64,000 bases of DNA, taken from a virus (Duplodnaviria; Caudoviricetes). The notes under the pieces were generated by a model that made no database searches, was not told the DNA's origin, and saw nothing but the letters and a program-made list of their open reading frames with translations. Below are positions 18,720 through 54,982 of this stretch, piece by piece. Position numbers and translations under genes: made by a program. Each line of letters begins with the position of its first letter. Position 1 is the first letter of the stretch. Location of the stretch: the IMG/VR virus record IMGVR_UViG_3300048691_000224; one strand, 5' to 3'.

Positions 18720-18934
18720 ATAGACCCGAGATCATTTCTGTTTACTTCTACACCACGTCTGATGTACTAATTTTGGTTTTAGTTGCTACTGAGCTATATG
18801 CCAATAATATTTGTGAGGCTGTGCGAGCTCATCTGCACACTTGGGCTTTTTGTCTTCTCGTTCCAGCTGGCTCTTACGACTGTAGCGTCACCTCAAAAAA
18901 TGGTGCTCCCTCACTCAATCAGGAATACACAAAG

Positions 18935-19020
18935 TGCTGGACACAGGATTCGAACCTGCGATGGATAATAAAATCAATAGCTTACAAAACTATTCCCGTC
19001 AACCGCTTGGGTAATCCAGC
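18935..19020 (-). tRNA. tRNA-Thr(TGT) with a class II-like body (long variable arm); CCA not encoded
   Basis: GCTGGAT/GTCCAGC; ATAGT-TTTGTAA-GCTAT; 17-nt variable region. Confidence 0.75.
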
Positions 19021-19066
19021 ACTTTGTATACTCACTATGAGTGGTGGGTGCACGTTGTATATCTTC

Positions 19067-19346: not shown

Positions 19347-19422
19347 TGGCAGGCCGGGCAGGGTTCGAACCTGCGACACTTCGCGTCAAAGGCGAATGCT
19401 CTACCAGCTGAGCTACCGACCG
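19347..19422 (-). tRNA. tRNA-Gln(TTG), second, divergent body
   Basis: TTCGC-CTTTGAC-GCGAA; G73; 1-72 mismatch. Confidence 0.8.
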
Positions 19423-19431
19423 ACAAAAATA

Positions 19432-19505
19432 TGGTGGACCGTCCCAGAATCGAACTGGGACTATAGCTTGCAAAGCTATCGTGTTACCATCTATACCAAC
19501 AGCCC
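19432..19505 (-). tRNA. tRNA-Ala(TGC)
   Basis: ATAGC-TTTGCAA-GCTAT; G3-U70; CCA. Confidence 0.95.
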
Positions 19506-19600: not shown

Positions 19601-20218
19601 CTATAACTCACCAAGTTGTTGTGCGCTAATCACGATCCTACGTGCTTGGTGTTTATTGTCGATTCCCCAAATTTCCTTGTTTCGAACAAGCGCCCGATAC
19701 TCAACGTCACTGTTAATTTGGGTAATTTCTCGAGGTGGTATCAGACTTACGTAGTATACCCACAAATCAATACGTAACGCATCCAGAATCCTATTGTCCC
19801 AGAATCGTTGCCCATCTTCCGTTTGTTGCGAGTCGGTAATGATTGATCTATACTTCGGCAACAAGCACTCGAAGAATACAAATTCGGTGAGCCCCCTTGT
19901 CTGAAATACCTGGGAGTCTCTCCACACCATTACTTGCTGTGCACAAGTTGTTCTGAGGTATGAGTTCGAGCCAACAGTAAATTGCATTGCGTATGCCGCT
20001 CTCTGAGTATCATGTTCGATCAGTGCGTATGCTCTCGTCGACTCGTAAAGAGTATAGTCGCCTATTTGTTTGATCGCTATTGGTCGCTTTGTTTCGAAAA
20101 ACTTGTGAGTAAATGCGGCATTCTTAATGTCATCCATCAGATGAAAATCTGTCGGAAACACAGACTGAGGCAGTTCAAACAGCTCCTGCGGCTTGACCTG
20201 TGATTGTATAAATTTCAT
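19601..20218 (-). CDS. Hypothetical protein embedded in the tRNA array
   Basis: 205-aa ORF; IITDSQQTEDGQRFW motif (possibly GNAT-like, unverified). Confidence 0.65.
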   Translation of the reverse strand: MKFIQSQVKPQELFELPQSVFPTDFHLMDDIKNAAFTHKFFETKRPIAIKQIGDYTLYESTRAYALIEHDTQRAAYAMQFTVGSNSYLRTTCAQQVMVWRDSQVFQTRGLTEFVFFECLLPKYRSIITDSQQTEDGQRFWDNRILDALRIDLWVYYVSLIPPREITQINSDVEYRALVRNKEIWGIDNKHQARRIVISAQQLGEL

Positions 20219-20233
20219 TGTGTATCCTAATTT

Positions 20234-20307
20234 TACAGCTACAGAGAATTGAACTCTGATTACTGGTGATGAGAACCCCAGCGTCCTAGACGTTAGACGA
20301 TAGCTGC
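20234..20307 (-). tRNA. tRNA-Glu(CTC), atypical anticodon stem; CCA not encoded
   Basis: Glu-type D-arm TCGTCTA...AGGAC; CTGGGG-TTCTCAT-CACCAG. Confidence 0.7.
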
Positions 20308-20345
20308 ATTTATTTTTCGGCTCTTGCTAACCGATCGATTCATCA

Positions 20346-20485
20346 ATATGATGGTCAGGATTTTAACCTGACGTTTCCACGGGCACGAGTATCCTTATTT
20401 AGACGACTACAGTTAACCCGTAGATGAGTTTCAAAACTCACGTCTCTCGCTGTTGAGGTATCCTAATCTCTAGATGACATCATAT
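20346..20485 (-). ncRNA. 140-nt double-cloverleaf tRNA-like RNA candidate
   Basis: ATATGATG/CATCATAT outer stem; two D-arm+T-arm modules; central CTACGG/CTGTAG hairpin. Confidence 0.6.
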
Positions 20486-20497
20486 AATTAAAAATTT

Positions 20498-20571
20498 TGG
20501 TACAGATACGGGGAGTCGAACCCCGCTTAGTAGAGAGAAAATCTACTGTCCTACCGATAGACGATATCTGC
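20498..20571 (-). tRNA. tRNA-Glu(TTC) with a pyrimidine at position 37
   Basis: GTAGA-TTTTCTC-TCTAC; CCA. Confidence 0.9.
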
Positions 20572-20582
20572 ATTTATTTTTG

Positions 20583-20620
20583 TGGCTCCTTAGACAGGCA
20601 TCTCGAACCTGTATATTACG
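20583..20620 (-). pseudogene. tRNA 3'-half remnant
   Basis: ACAGG-TTCGAGATG-CCTGT followed by ...GAGCCA; no 5' half visible. Confidence 0.35.
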
Positions 20621-20623
20621 GCT

Positions 20624-20697
20624 TGGTCAGGGTAGAAGGAATCGAACCTTCACCACGACGTCCCAAACGTCGCATGATACCATTTCACCACACCCTG
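20624..20697 (-). tRNA. tRNA-Pro(TGG)
   Basis: CGACG-TTTGGGA-CGTCG; CCA. Confidence 0.95.
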
Positions 20698-20702
20698 ATA
20701 AC

Positions 20703-20775
20703 TAATTAGATCTAAGTGTGCTCCTGTTACAAACTGCCGGTGAGGCCTGGCGTAGTGCACACTTAGATCTAATTA
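20703..20775. repeat. Perfect 19-bp inverted repeat with a 35-nt loop
   Basis: taattagatctaagtgtgc / gcacacttagatctaatta. Confidence 0.9.
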
Positions 20776-20960
20776 CTCAGGGTTGAGAGACACAAATTGT
20801 ATTAACGGGAGGAATGAGGCATCAGCGACCACTCATATTACCAACTCACAAATTAATACAAAGCATTTCACGCCCTGAGTAATAAGATATTATTTCACAC
20901 CTATTTGTTAATGATCATTTTTGCTACAGAATTCGATGATTCTGAGTGCACATATAATTG

Positions 20961-20992
20961 AAAAGAGCCTTGTAAATTACTTGGCTCTTTTT
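20961..20992. terminator. Bidirectional intrinsic terminator-like hairpin
   Basis: AAAAGAGCC...GGCTCTTTTT. Confidence 0.6.
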
Positions 20993-21182
20993 GTGTTTGT
21001 TATAATTCTTATTATTCTGAGGGATCAAATTCTTTTTCGATCTCCATAATTTCGATTATCACATACACAGGGAGCTTTACAATCCGCCGGCGTCCAATAA
21101 TTGGCTTCCGTCTGGCAATGTTCACTTCCTGTATTATACGAATTCAAAATCATTTCTTGATCTCTTTATTTGCTATCTGTCT

Positions 21183-21211
21183 ATTATATATGCTTTATTT
21201 ATATAAGTCAA
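21183..21211 (-). promoter_or_regulatory. Sigma70-type promoter (TTGACT-N17-TATAAT) driving the main tRNA array
   Basis: Near-consensus, upstream of the ORF-free structured region. Confidence 0.8.
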
Positions 21212-21233
21212 CAATTATTTTACCAAAATTTTA

Positions 21234-21352
21234 AAAATATTTTCAAATCAAAGTTTAGAAAGGACTTGAACCTCCCATCCAATAGGATAGCAATTGAACG
21301 CCGCCCCGACTGCTCTACCAATGAGCTATAAAATTTGATTTGAAAATATTTT
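21234..21352 (-). ncRNA. tRNA-mimic element E3 (D-arm and T-arm inside a 19-bp perfect terminal stem)
   Basis: TA-GCTC-ATTGGTA-GAGC; GGAGG-TTCAAGT-CCTTT; AAAATATTTTCAAATCAAA and its complement. Confidence 0.65.
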
Positions 21353-21376
21353 AGATTTTCTAACTACTTAGACCCC

Positions 21377-21404
21377 ATTATCAACATTTATTTGAACAGG
21401 TCAA
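21377..21404 (-). promoter_or_regulatory. Promoter (TTGACC-N16-GATAAT) for element E3
   Basis: Family-like -35 box, directly upstream of E3. Confidence 0.65.
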
Positions 21405-21423
21405 CAATTATTTTTCAACTTGA

Positions 21424-21600
21424 AAAATAAATTTAGAAAGAGCGGGTAAAGGGAGATCGAACCCTAACAACTTAGTGGATTTCTCGATAGGTAATATTAC
21501 CTCCTATCGCGGCACAGATCCTCAATACTAATTAGGAGTCTACTAATCTATGCCCGCACGAAGTTGGCTGCCTTGCAACCACTCTTTCTGAATTTATTTT
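21424..21600 (-). ncRNA. tRNA-mimic element E2 (extended anticodon arm, 19-bp terminal stem)
   Basis: GCGGGCA/TACCCGC; GATT/AATT D-stem; AGGG-TTCGATCT-CCCT; CGATAGG/CCTATCG. Confidence 0.6.
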
Positions 21601-21616
21601 ATACAAGAATTGCACT

Positions 21617-21766
21617 AAAAACTGAACACAGTACTCGGTTGGATTTGCACCAACTACCACCTGATGGTTACAGGTCGTACTATTCTCATGGGCTTTATAG
21701 CTAATATTTCCCACTACCTTTGTACTAGCTCTACTATTTAAGCTATCGTTACACTGTTCAGATTTT
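21617..21766 (-). ncRNA. tRNA-mimic element E1 (extended anticodon arm, variable arm, terminal stem)
   Basis: GCTT-AAATAGTA-GAGC; ACCTG/CAGGT; GTTGG-TGCAAAT-CCAAC; CTGAACA/TGTTCAG. Confidence 0.6.
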
Positions 21767-21789
21767 AATGTAATCCTCACTTGATATCC

Positions 21790-21817
21790 ATTATCAATGA
21801 AGTTTCAAACAAGTCAA
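21790..21817 (-). promoter_or_regulatory. Promoter (TTGACT-N16-GATAAT) for elements E1+E2
   Basis: Directly upstream of E1. Confidence 0.65.
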
Positions 21818-21824
21818 CAATTAT

Positions 21825-22025
21825 TTAATTTACTTTCTGGCCGGTGCTGGAATTGATGCACAAAAATCGGCTGGTATTAGAGTCTCCAATTTTACTAGCC
21901 ACAAGCAATGTGGTGCTTGCATTTTTGCAAGCAAGTTCTGATGCATAATTACCTAACACAGCTGGTGCAGCTAATGGATTGTGGAATGATGCTGCAATGT
22001 AAATTAGTGTGTATACGGTCGCCAT
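21825..22025 (-). CDS. Small exported/membrane protein (GxYAS..AC family), paralog of 27254-27466
   Basis: Hydrophobic N-terminus; LGNYASELACK; AAGGA SD. Confidence 0.6.
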   Translation of the reverse strand: MATVYTLIYIAASFHNPLAAPAVLGNYASELACKNASTTLLVASKIGDSNTSRFLCINSSTGQKVN

Positions 22026-22061
22026 TTTGAATTTCCTTTATTAAACTTGCTCTTAGGGTCT

Positions 22062-22089
22062 ATTATACCCCAAATCGGAGTAAGGTCAA
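22062..22089 (-). promoter_or_regulatory. Early promoter (TTGACC-N16-TATAAT)
   Basis: Family member with the -10 palindrome. Confidence 0.8.
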
Positions 22090-22128
22090 CAAGTAATTCA
22101 AGTTTTTATGGTTTTAATCAAAAAAAGT

Positions 22129-22473
22129 TCAGATATCGTGGTAATCCCAGTTTTCAATACATGAACCATATGATTCGATAAAATTATTGTAGGCAGCTTC
22201 CGTCGAGGCTTCTACCAACGATTCTAAATCTCCAACCACTTTACCGTACACTAGGTGTGATGCTTCAAAGTGGTTCACCCACTTGTAATAGTCTTCATGA
22301 ACTTCCGCGACCACTGTCCATCCAGACACTTCATCATATCCAATACAAACTGGATTAAGCGTAATTGCTTCTGTTCTTCTTTGCACACACGAGTTAACTT
22401 TAAATGGTAACTCGTCAACGGTAGGGACAATTGGTCTGTTCAAAAACTCGGTTAATGCTTGATTATTCATCAT
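22129..22473 (-). CDS. Hypothetical protein
   Basis: Likely start MMNNQAL. Confidence 0.6.
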   Translation of the reverse strand: MMNNQALTEFLNRPIVPTVDELPFKVNSCVQRRTEAITLNPVCIGYDEVSGWTVVAEVHEDYYKWVNHFEASHLVYGKVVGDLESLVEASTEAAYNNFIESYGSCIENWDYHDI

Positions 22474-22636
22474 TGATTCCTTCGGAGTACAATCTATCTG
22501 CCTCATCGCACGGGTCTTCGTCGAGTGGATTAGTATCAATCATGATGTGCCCGATGTGAATTTTACCATCTTCAGTTGCACAGCACGGGTCACCAATGAA
22601 GTGTTGGCCAGCGAGTAGCGTTACTTTATTTTTCAT
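22463..22636 (-). CDS. Small hypothetical protein, 57 aa (MKNKVTLLAGQHFIGDPCC...)
   Basis: Translated by hand; fills the gap and overlaps the next start. Confidence 0.45.
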   Translation of the reverse strand: MKNKVTLLAGQHFIGDPCCATEDGKIHIGHIMIDTNPLDEDPCDEADRLYSEGINDE

Positions 22637-22649
22637 GTCAAACTTTCAG

Positions 22650-40440: not shown

Positions 40441-41394
40441 TCAAAACGAGAAGTCAGACTCATACGCCTTACTTTGGCGAGTGGGGACTTGTCTGGGAAT
40501 CGAATCGAACATATTATGCAGCATATTGTCAACCAACATACCAACGTGGCGTTGCCTATCAATTTTATCAAAGAATTCATCCTTGAACCACTGAGGAATC
40601 ATCTCCTCATCTGTCGGGACAGCAATCGCCTTAAACATACGACCGGCGTGTTCCATTTCATATTTTAGTTTGAAAATCTTAATTTTCATACCACTCGATA
40701 TTAACAGCGACTCAGTATCTCCCGCAGCTTGTCTAAAATCATTATATAAAATTGCTGCTGATACATGGCCGGGTAGGCGTGTAGTTGGGTAGTCTCTAAA
40801 CGAGGCTGTGTACTGTTCAATTCCCTTGATACCTTTTGGAAGGCCGAGATCCATTAGATCAATCTCATCAATCATTTCATCACGATATTCCATGATAAAA
40901 TCATCTAGCTCTTCATCAGGGGTTCCTGTAAGCATTTTGTGACACGTAGATCGCAGGAATGCTTTGACGGGGCGGGGGGTCGTAGTCTTGCGCATGTCGA
41001 CCCCCATAGCCTTCAGTTCATCCTTGGCCTTGCCTTCTTTGTCGATCACATGGATGACATACCGCTTCTTCTGAATGAAAAATCCTTTATCAGCAACCAA
41101 TTCTCTACCAGTTTTAATGTGCTGGTCGAACCCGGGTTGTACCAAGAATGCTGATCGATTGTACGCGGGGAATGAGGCATTGATCTCATGACCTATCTTG
41201 TCAGCAATCTTAACTACAAGGTTTGGATTGGCATTGGGTGGGATTATCTCACTGAGTGAACAATACAAACTGTTGTGCACCAATATACCGTTGGCGAAAA
41301 AATTATGTACCCCATCAACCTCAATGTCGTACACATCAAGCTCTTGTAGACCCAAATCAATAATTTCAAAATTATCTGTCTCAACTATATTCAT
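40441..41394 (-). CDS. DNA polymerase B, C-terminal fragment preceded by a 41-aa C-intein (41272-41394)
   Basis: VYDIEVDGVHNFFANGILVHN|SLY; FIQKKRY; KAMGVDMRK. Confidence 0.9.
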   Translation of the reverse strand: MNIVETDNFEIIDLGLQELDVYDIEVDGVHNFFANGILVHNSLYCSLSEIIPPNANPNLVVKIADKIGHEINASFPAYNRSAFLVQPGFDQHIKTGRELVADKGFFIQKKRYVIHVIDKEGKAKDELKAMGVDMRKTTTPRPVKAFLRSTCHKMLTGTPDEELDDFIMEYRDEMIDEIDLMDLGLPKGIKGIEQYTASFRDYPTTRLPGHVSAAILYNDFRQAAGDTESLLISSGMKIKIFKLKYEMEHAGRMFKAIAVPTDEEMIPQWFKDEFFDKIDRQRHVGMLVDNMLHNMFDSIPRQVPTRQSKAYESDFSF

Positions 41395-53172: not shown

Positions 53173-54030
53173 TTAATTCACAACCAAATTAGTGAGATAT
53201 TTATGCAGATCAGGCAGTCCGCCAATGGAGGTGCCATCAGGGCACACTATTTGCGGGAAGCTTCGAGCGCTTGGAAACTTCTCACTAAAGTCATCACGCG
53301 TGAAGTCAACATCCAACATCTTGGTTATAAATTGTTTATCCTTGTTTGTCAGTAGCGCTTTAGCTTGATCGCACTGTGGACAGCCGGGTTTGGAATATAC
53401 AGTAAATTCTGGAATTCCAACATATCGATCTGCTGAACCAAACATTGGAGCATCATCACCGCTGTATTGGCCCCAGACGTCATCCCAATCACCCTCTGTA
53501 GCACCTTTGGAATACTCAAATACTTTTTGTTCGAAAAAGTTTCCGTGAGTTACGCTATCAATCATCTGCTCTACCCATGGTAGCGGATTCTTTTTAATTT
53601 TGAATATCCCCTTTAATCCAAGGGCGATCAATCGGCGATCTGCAATGTACCTAATATACAACTTCACATCAGCTGCCGTAAGGTCTTTCATTTCACCCAT
53701 CTCAAACGCGAGATCGATAAACTTATCCTCCAAATCAACCATGCGCTCTGCAATTGTATAGAGTTGACTCTTCAGGCTATCTTTCCAGATGTGTCGATTT
53801 TCCTCAATAAACACACGGAACAACTTAATCATAGCGTCTGTATGACAATTACCAGAAATGGATAGTGTGTTAGCATGTCTAATTTGAAACGCTGTACCAG
53901 GGACGCTGAGACAAAACACTTCTGTTGACTGAAGTTCTTTGGTCACTTGTACTGCTGATTTGGGGATCGGTGGTAAGCTACCAGCAATCGCCTGAAGCAT
54001 ATTGATAATATCCGTATTTGTTTTATTCAT
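53173..54030 (-). CDS. nrdB: NrdB C-terminal fragment: 61-aa C-intein (53848-54030), RNR beta C-part and fused glutaredoxin
   Basis: VFCLSVP...SISGN|CHTDAMIKLF; YIADRRL; NFFEQ; YSKPGCPQC. Confidence 0.85.
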   Translation of the reverse strand: MNKTNTDIINMLQAIAGSLPPIPKSAVQVTKELQSTEVFCLSVPGTAFQIRHANTLSISGNCHTDAMIKLFRVFIEENRHIWKDSLKSQLYTIAERMVDLEDKFIDLAFEMGEMKDLTAADVKLYIRYIADRRLIALGLKGIFKIKKNPLPWVEQMIDSVTHGNFFEQKVFEYSKGATEGDWDDVWGQYSGDDAPMFGSADRYVGIPEFTVYSKPGCPQCDQAKALLTNKDKQFITKMLDVDFTRDDFSEKFPSARSFPQIVCPDGTSIGGLPDLHKYLTNLVVN

Positions 54031-54982
54031 TTGTTGTATTCTGAGCACTAGTTAATGTTTTTGCGCGAGCCGCTGCTGCAGCGGCTAGCAGTTTGTCAAT
54101 GTGTTTTATGGTTCTACCTAATTTCCACCCAGTTGGTATCTCAGCTAGCCTACCAATAGTTTTAGATTCAGTGCCGTTGGTTATCCACTGCTTATCGCGC
54201 TTCTTTTGGGTCATCCCAGCCCAGAATCCAATTGGAGGATCTATATTAGGCTGAAGCTTCAGATTGGTTGTGCCATCTGTATAGCAAATTACACCCCTAA
54301 TATTTGGGTGATTTGATACTTGCATCCTTTGGGCAGCAGTACGGATTTGGGGTGGGGGTGGATGTTTACCAAATCTCCACCCAACTGGTAGTTGGGCTGT
54401 TTTTAGCATTTGTGTCGACGTTGTACCATCAGTAATCCACCTAAACTTCCCTACTCGAGTTGCTGAGGCCTTGCGCCTAATCTCTATTGCTTCTTCAGTA
54501 TACACTCGTCCTGTGTTGTTGGGAATACTATGTGGGTGGTCTTGCAACCGCTTGATGTTGCGCCTAGTCACACATTCTAGTTCATCCGCCGAATAGTAAC
54601 TACCACCATTTAATAATCGCCGGGCAGCAGATGTTTTTGCACGCGTAGCGGTAGCTTTTGACCTTGCGGTTTGACGCACATAATCAGGTACACCCGCTAG
54701 TGTGTCTCCACCTTGGCCACCTATTGCTATGTTGTAGGTATCATCCCTTGATACAAAATTAACGTCAACTAGTTGACGTTCTACAGCTCGAGCTTCGTCC
54801 CAAGTGTCACACTCATGCAATGTGATTCTCACAAAGTTATCTCTACCATATTTTTCGACGGCCCTAGCTAACAATATACCCGAACCCAAATACCCATCAA
54901 ATTGATCGGCAAACTGCTTGTGGATCCCCACATATATGCGATCATTGATTACGTTAGTTGTCTGGTACACGATATAATTCAT
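54023..54982 (-). mobile_element. Free-standing GIY-YIG homing endonuclease between the nrdB halves
   Basis: YIVYQTTN...IYVGIH...YLGSG...KYG..NF...E...YN; WITDG/WITNG repeats. Confidence 0.85.

Follow-up and report, generated by a model that had tools for sequence, protein, structure and literature searches.

E3, a short minus-strand element within the tRNA gene array of a jumbo phage, is derived from a tRNA and is not a standard working tRNA. It retains the D- and T-arms of a tRNA inside a long closed helix and most likely represents a tRNA-derived small RNA particular to this lineage, not a functional tRNA. Our preferred reading, which we put forward tentatively, is more specific: E3 would be a structured small RNA of the kind of T4 RNA C and RNA D that acts as a shape mimic, its long helix being a module for processing or stability.

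Structure of E3 and its relation to tRNA

The positions of E3, its parts and the features discussed below are collected in Table 1; we refer throughout to the whole stretch of 64,000 nt that was analysed as the window. The original prediction of a perfect 19-bp inverted repeat that lengthens the stem to about 24 bp was borne out on the minus strand. The two arms of 24 nt are 96% complementary, with the outer 19 bp perfect, a single mismatch (T.C) and four further pairs, and in the related contig L081 the closing helix is a perfect 24 bp. By chance, 64 kb of sequence should contain about 6e-5 to 2e-4 perfect 19-bp inverted repeats with arms within 200 nt, and no second copy of the repeat-arm sequence was found in the window. 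With 24 bp and one mismatch, the helix has the double-stranded length of an RNase III substrate (at least 20 bp, roughly two turns). We considered whether the helix could be an intrinsic terminator and rejected this, as only A-U pairs form its base, whereas G+C stems mark the real terminators of the genome.

Table 1. Positions of E3, its parts and surrounding features in the window, and of tRNA genes with 8-nt anticodon loops on three other contigs
Feature	Position	Strand	Description
E3	21234..21352	-	119-nt tRNA-derived cloverleaf, stem closed
Closing helix, 5' arm	21329..21352	-	19 perfect bp, mismatch at position 21333, 4 bp
Closing helix, 3' arm	21234..21257	-	outer part and following A/T run overlap a possible UP element of the next promoter
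D-arm	21312..21326	-	GCTC-ATTGGTA-GAGC; loop with G18 and G19; preceded by U8 and A9; RF00005 alignment
Central G+C-rich hairpin	21284..21307	-	occupies the place of the anticodon arm
Small hairpin	21277..21288	-	ATCC-TATT-GGAT; read from the sequence; overlaps 3' strand of central hairpin
T-arm	21259..21275	-	GGAGG-TTCAAGT-CCTTT; canonical T-loop with T54, T55, C56 and A58
P_E3 promoter	21377..21404	-	TTGACC-16-GATAAT, A/T-rich upstream; 10/12 in consensus scan
Leader	21353..21376	-	from -10 hexamer to stem; start probably near 21368-21370, from usual spacing
Next promoter	21183..21211	-	TTGACT-17-TATAAT, 11/12; serves the 42-codon ORF
42-codon ORF	21153..21025	-	cysteine-rich
Canonical terminator	20991..20961		G+C-stemmed, T run; after the 42-codon ORF
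E2	21424..21600	-	closing helix and tRNA-like core
RNA ligase family protein	23255..23896	-	213 aa; PF09414, 82.9 bits
Second tRNA-Thr(TGT)	18923..19033		87 nt; 6-bp anticodon stem, variable arm, without CCA
Long closed hairpins	20703..20775 and 20767..20888		19-bp perfect and 16-bp stems; directly upstream of tRNA-Pro
8-nt-loop tRNA gene, L086	9381..9457		anticodon tgtt; ARAGORN
8-nt-loop tRNA gene, L042	1116..1192		anticodon ttca; ARAGORN
8-nt-loop tRNA gene, L067	1875..1946		anticodon ttag; ARAGORN

The canonical D- and T-arms that had been predicted are both present, and the Rfam tRNA model (RF00005) aligns each of them with high posterior probability. The nucleotides of the tRNA elbow (G18, G19, T54, T55, C56, A58, U8 and A14) are in place, as is A21. 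Read inward from the helix, the order is U8-A9, D-arm, 36 irregular nt, T-arm, one extra nt and the helix again. E3 shares with tRNA the two arms, U8, their spacing and the position inside a tRNA array. As to the claim that the anticodon region had been replaced by short hairpins, the G+C-rich hairpin stands. The ATCC-TATT-GGAT hairpin is present as well, but its stem is weakened in the related contigs L085 and L088, where a G to A change turns one pair into C.A, and it is therefore poorly supported. The loop of the central hairpin is either UUCAAU (6 nt) or GUUCAAUU (8 nt) and never 7 nt; its stem contains one C.A mismatch and four G.U pairs, and between the hairpin and the D-stem lie 9 nt, against one in a tRNA. 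Neither a complement nor a second copy of its 20-mer core was found in the window, and an antisense-target role for this 20-mer was rejected since the complement is absent elsewhere in the window.

Folded as RNA, E3 has a minimum free energy of -37.9 kcal/mol (z = -5.3 against shuffles) and a pair probability of 0.88-0.89 in the D-arm. The thermodynamic optimum extends the T hairpin otherwise, in competition with the inner 4 bp of the closing helix, and the strict cloverleaf is 6 kcal/mol less stable than this optimum in a two-dimensional model that ignores the tertiary contacts of the elbow.

Measured against tRNA as a whole, E3 scores 20.2 bits on RF00005 (E = 0.29-3.3), below the gathering threshold of 29 bits, and it is absent from the 21 default calls of ARAGORN, in agreement with the original prediction of an element that derives from tRNA and is no normal tRNA. 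Only with relaxed thresholds does ARAGORN report E3: the -ps90 call needs an artificial 12-nt 'intron' and has a mismatched stem, and the -ps80 call is a tRNA-??? to which no anticodon is assigned. The intron reading was rejected: an intron at position 31/32 is impossible, 12 nt are too short for self-splicing, and the resulting stem contains a mismatch. The acceptor end is closed and without CCA, as had been claimed, the 3' strand continuing into the 24-bp helix, whereas 18 of the 21 tRNAs in the window do encode CCA; the acceptor stem consists only of A/U and includes a mismatch. The Rfam search that had been proposed as a check gave a divided answer, in that both arms align to the tRNA family, while the total score stays below threshold and no Rfam family other than tRNA, YrlA included, matches E3.

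Genome setting, promoter and neighbouring RNA

The source is an uncultured freshwater jumbo phage. The window encodes RIIA, a family B DNA polymerase and ribonucleotide reductase, and one of its proteins is also found on a recorded 221 kb contig. The DNA polymerase is just 33-40% identical to those of Ralstonia phage RsoM2USA, Xanthomonas phage XacN1 and similar phages. Adjoining its gene, positions 40441-41394 give a weak match to an intein-splicing domain (26.4 bits, below the 35.8-bit cutoff), and a GIY-YIG endonuclease (54023-54982) adjoins the ribonucleotide reductase genes; judged from their sequences, these may be mobile elements in the replication module.

With default settings, ARAGORN finds 21 tRNA genes in the window, every one on the minus strand between 15187 and 26720. 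Rfam likewise gives 21 tRNA matches at threshold, a partly different set with scores of 37-68 bits. The three ARAGORN tRNAs without an encoded CCA, namely the second Thr(TGT), the second Gly(TCC) and Glu(CTC), are atypical, and the Thr and Gly ones duplicate other calls. In the second tRNA-Thr(TGT) the acceptor stem is prolonged by a flanking 19-nt inverted repeat (89%); among 177 tRNAs of all loci fetched, such an extension occurs otherwise only in the tRNA-Asn of L014 (14 bp). Of the two further long closed hairpins upstream of tRNA-Pro, the first has a loop rich in indels among relatives. In other jumbo-phage contigs ARAGORN reports four-base anticodons in 8-nt anticodon loops (Table 1); these predicted tRNAs may be of the frameshift or suppressor type. 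Homing endonuclease genes (HNH and GIY-YIG) occur in the region, and the gene for an RNA ligase family protein lies inside the tRNA region, 1.9 kb upstream of E3. Relatives of this ligase that are about 50% identical are common across IMG/VR jumbo-phage contigs (228 stretches).

Strong sigma-70-type promoters matching the consensus at 10-11 of 12 positions occur throughout the tRNA region, nearly all of them on the minus strand, and at least four of them, P_E3 included, have the upstream context AATAATTGTTGAC in common. The promoter predicted about 25 bp upstream of E3 was confirmed, with the -10 hexamer ending 24 nt before the stem. Its hexamers are conserved and its spacer varies: among the variants the -10 hexamer does not change, the -35 hexamer keeps TTGAC ahead of a variable sixth base, and the spacer carries 2-3 changes. 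The 24-nt leader shows 0-1 substitutions across variants, and the next promoter is 100% conserved among relatives. No canonical terminator was found between E3 and the next promoter or the 42-codon ORF. This ORF has its own strong promoter and canonical terminator, and all relatives show 100% conservation of the promoter, the 5' UTR and the first codons. In L085 (9566-9620) and L088 (1208-1262), the promoter and leader before E1 nearly copy P_E3 and its leader, either by duplication or by replacement.

In freshwater metatranscriptomes (four runs, Logan contigs, region 20200-22600), E2, E1 and the sequence downstream of the next promoter are covered. No contig covers 21172-21414, a gap to which we give no weight either way because contig assembly, size selection and structure can hide an RNA. 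A single joint from 20762 to 21433, seen in one run with 22 letters on its shorter side, could come from a variant without the stretch and is too weak to use. Short RNA contigs of E2 end at about 21588-21591 and at 21435-21436 in three runs, that is, inside its closing helix with the outer 9-12 bp missing. E2 has the highest depth of the region (317 in X19), and in one X19 contig position 21592 is connected to about 21439; this head-to-tail junction could reflect a circular RNA, a tandem form or template switching by reverse transcriptase. In X20 and X21 the same E2 core lies within other flanks.

Distribution and conservation

By sequence comparison, E3 was found only in one phage lineage, on four contigs: the window, L081, which is 96-98% identical to it, and the more distant L085 and L088, whose coding flanks are 79-84% identical. 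No E3 was found in cultured phages (megablast and blastn, 50,697 records), exact and gapped patterns found L085 alone in IMG/VR, and a search of 1.44 Mb of other jumbo-phage loci with R1, the covariance model of E3, had no match. In JGI metagenome contigs a gapped pattern returned only an unrelated match in L086, an Asn-like tRNA with an 8-nt anticodon loop from a different phage, which has the D-arm and T-loop alone in common with E3. Among the neighbouring proteins, no homologue was found for the one of 114 aa, and the forms of the 42-aa and 66-aa proteins seen in the window are not on record.

The four contigs carry three distinct alleles of E3, that of L085 and L088 being the same. In the distant sub-lineage the E1-E2-E3 block has 90-93% identity, against 79-84% in flanking coding DNA. 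Per 100 nt, the neighbouring promoter spacer and linker carry 12-21 substitutions and E1, E2 and E3 carry 2.5-5. Each of the 39 cloverleaf pairs of E3 is standard in all four variants, as are all 23 pairs of the closing helix in each variant having the letters, as counted on a structure that is partly derived from the same sequences. Of the eight variable sites, six are unpaired and the other two lie in stems, where pairing is kept (G.U to A-U and G-C to G.U); with 66% of positions paired, the binomial probability of at most two sites in stems is about 0.02. The D-arm, the T-loop, the elbow nucleotides and the 20-mer core of the central hairpin are invariant in all four variants, and the T-arm stem has a single change, C to T in L081, which leaves a G.U pair. 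The helix mismatch position is T.C, T-A or G.A in the three alleles and is therefore free to vary. A deletion of 11 nt in the 3' arm, private to L085, shortens the helix of that contig; the arm of L088 is intact.

No compensatory double change was seen in the pairs of E3 among the four variants, so that structural selection on E3 itself is argued from few events. Because the 109 nt downstream of E3 are 100% identical in relatives, part of its conservation possibly stems from recent exchange, and its low divergence could result from recent shared ancestry or recombination. E2 has the same architecture as E3, with two compensatory double changes and no broken pair, and the block therefore encodes at least one RNA under structural selection. 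The surrounding tRNA array is highly mosaic between close relatives (20316-20704 and 22091-28931 compared with L088 and L085). More specifically, L085 is without about 6.8 kb upstream, including tRNA-Arg, tRNA-Met and the RNA ligase gene, and has a different 222-aa ORF before E1 (a 1-kb gene), while L088 is without tRNA-Pro, tRNA-Glu(TTC) and the double tRNA-like spacer downstream of the block.

These comparisons bear on the reading of E3 as a decaying tRNA gene, a pseudogene or a by-product of recombination, functionless and preserved for the time being because it arose recently and is linked to neighbours that do function (the promoters, E1, E2 and the small ORF); we consider this reading unlikely. 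The reshuffled array, the confinement to one lineage, the absence of compensatory changes, the deletion in one variant and the irregular anticodon arm all agree with decay, and the three CCA-less tRNA calls suggest that aberrant tRNA-like genes accumulate here. However, a flanking helix of 19-24 bp is a constructed feature rather than a product of decay, and a similar one is present in E2 and in the second tRNA-Thr. Moreover, E3 has its own conserved promoter, its variable sites avoid stems, and it was kept in both sub-lineages while adjacent true tRNA genes were lost.

Alternative readings, related RNAs and proposed role

E3 could instead act in cis on the early transcript, as an RNase III processing or stabilising hairpin or as a transcriptional insulator for which the tRNA-like top was mere raw material; this we regard as quite unlikely. 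It would then be an element between two promoters, in the 5' region of the mRNA of the 42-codon ORF, and transcripts from P_E3 should run into this ORF since no canonical terminator intervenes. In length the helix matches a double-stranded RNase III substrate, its 3' arm merges into the A/T-rich region upstream of the next promoter, and tRNA-like 't-elements' of plant mitochondria are described as helping to form mRNA ends (PMC1920247). Against this, the next promoter already serves the ORF, which leaves an extra promoter and a 119-nt structure unneeded. The invariant elbow nucleotides of the D- and T-loops, which a mere hairpin would not need, also speak against a cis element, a weak point as there are few changes overall.

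It is very unlikely that E3 is the precursor of an unusual functional tRNA of the opal-suppressor-like or quadruplet-reading type. Such a tRNA would be released by RNase III, followed by RNase P and 3' trimming, and would receive its CCA from a nucleotidyltransferase. Its anticodon arm would be the central hairpin with an 8-nt loop presenting U-UCA-A (UUCAA is contained in GUUCAAUU). The 8-nt-loop tRNAs of L042, L086 and L067 and the three other tRNA calls without CCA in the cluster offer parallels. However, the 9 unpaired nt between the D-stem and the central hairpin, the C.A mismatch and four G.U pairs of the latter, the extra nt between the T-stem and the acceptor stem, and the mismatched A/U-only acceptor stem are all at odds with a working tRNA. 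Both tRNA finders also place E3 below threshold, and the ORFs of the window are open under code 11, so that recoding is not apparent.

A DNA-level element (a miniature inverted-repeat mobile element, a cruciform or a protein-binding site) is extremely improbable: the perfect 19-bp terminal inverted repeats of the 119-bp unit and the HNH and GIY-YIG genes of the region would fit, but a mobile element of this kind is expected in several copies with target-site duplications, and E3 is single-copy in the window, occurs elsewhere only at the orthologous locus in all collections searched, shows no target-site duplication and keeps a constant location between E2 and the ORF promoter.

Compared with canonical tRNAs and phage tRNA genes, E3 differs in its sub-threshold score, its lack of a 7-nt anticodon loop and of CCA, its closed acceptor and its own promoter. 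It is an old finding that phage tRNA clusters include a few RNAs other than tRNAs, T4 RNA C and RNA D among them, and E3, as a predicted RNA, resembles these as a small non-tRNA RNA gene inside such a cluster. To our knowledge, a role in RNA repair or as a tRNA mimic has been suspected for the two T4 RNAs and never shown. RNA C (species 1, 139 nt) and RNA D (species 2, 119 nt) are encoded where the T4 tRNA cluster ends. In RNA C the 5' and 3' ends pair in a terminal helix, beside which stands a canonical T-arm. Neither T4 RNA has a 24-bp closing helix, and E3 keeps both a D-arm and a T-arm. Their genes come immediately after tRNA-Arg in the T4 record; the two RNAs are cut from a tRNA precursor and are not known to have a promoter of their own, whereas E3 has one. 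Model R1 found no match in the T4 tRNA region (L084), and the folds of RNA C and RNA D differ from that of E3.

The YrlA Y RNAs (RF02553), partners of Ro60/Rsr, are like E3 in setting a D/T elbow module on a long end-to-end helix and in not being aminoacylated. In YrlA the helix extends from the side of the anticodon stem and the arms follow in the order T then D, whereas in E3 the helix extends from the acceptor side and the order is D then T. No match to RF02553 was found at E3 with E up to 10; the sole, weak match in the window (23.7 bits against a threshold of 69) covers two adjacent true tRNAs (19372-19485). The distinction from bacterial Y RNA that the original prediction had drawn by arm order is supported by this family search. 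A scan of 18 larger ORFs in the window found no TROVE (Ro60/Rsr) domain. A Ro60/TROVE protein is present in some jumbo phages, a few of which also have a tRNA-like partner for it (PMC7824862). By analogy, E3 resembles YrlA in principle, and T4 RNA C and RNA D are its nearest analogues, not its homologues.

RNase III hairpins (the T7 R sites and those of lambda) and t-elements are further points of comparison, being long stems or tRNA-like folds in transcripts that can direct endonucleolytic cuts, as is predicted for E3. A tRNA elbow such as that of E3 is not known from RNase III sites, and t-elements, which are substrates of RNase P or RNase Z, have an open acceptor end where that of E3 is closed.

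In the preferred reading, that of a tRNA-derived structured small RNA, E3 would be the gene of a descendant of tRNA that has lost decoding. Its own sigma-70-type promoter would be active early and would yield a joint transcript of E3 and the 42-codon ORF downstream, and this transcript would have to be cut to free E3, because no canonical terminator precedes the next promoter and the ORF. The long A/U-rich helix would be a processing or stability module, and at 24 bp, the length of an RNase III substrate (at least 20 bp), it would be the obvious cut site. Cut there by RNase III, the transcript would release a compact RNA of tRNA shape, separated from the leader and from the mRNA that follows. 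With neither CCA nor a 7-nt anticodon loop, this product would act through its tRNA shape, as a mimic or decoy for elbow-recognising proteins or as a partner of the phage's RNA-repair enzymes, and the conserved 'interface' it would offer is solely the elbow and the invariant G+C-rich hairpin. We infer the processing enzyme, the ends of the product, its stability and any partner.

A broader proposal, which we hold to be decidedly doubtful, is that E1, E2 and E3 together are conserved, promoter-driven, 'stretched' tRNA mimics in which the elbow is kept, both arms of the L are lengthened and the acceptor is closed and without CCA. They might serve as early decoys or sponges for host proteins that recognise tRNA shape, or as scaffolds for RNA ligase and repair. 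The targets of such a set would be tRNA-cleaving defence nucleases or modification or processing enzymes of the host. Jumbo phages carry RNA-repair kits, and phage tRNAs have been proposed as substitutes for host tRNAs cleaved by host defences (PMC7824862).

E3 is of moderate interest, mainly as a member of the E1-E3 set, its analogues T4 RNA C and RNA D being long known. If it is only a decaying tRNA gene, it shows fast turnover of the array, with debris that tRNA finders miss or mislabel. As an uncharged tRNA-shaped block near an RNA ligase gene, E3 with its neighbours would be a good test of whether phages use tRNA mimics, beyond carrying spare tRNAs.
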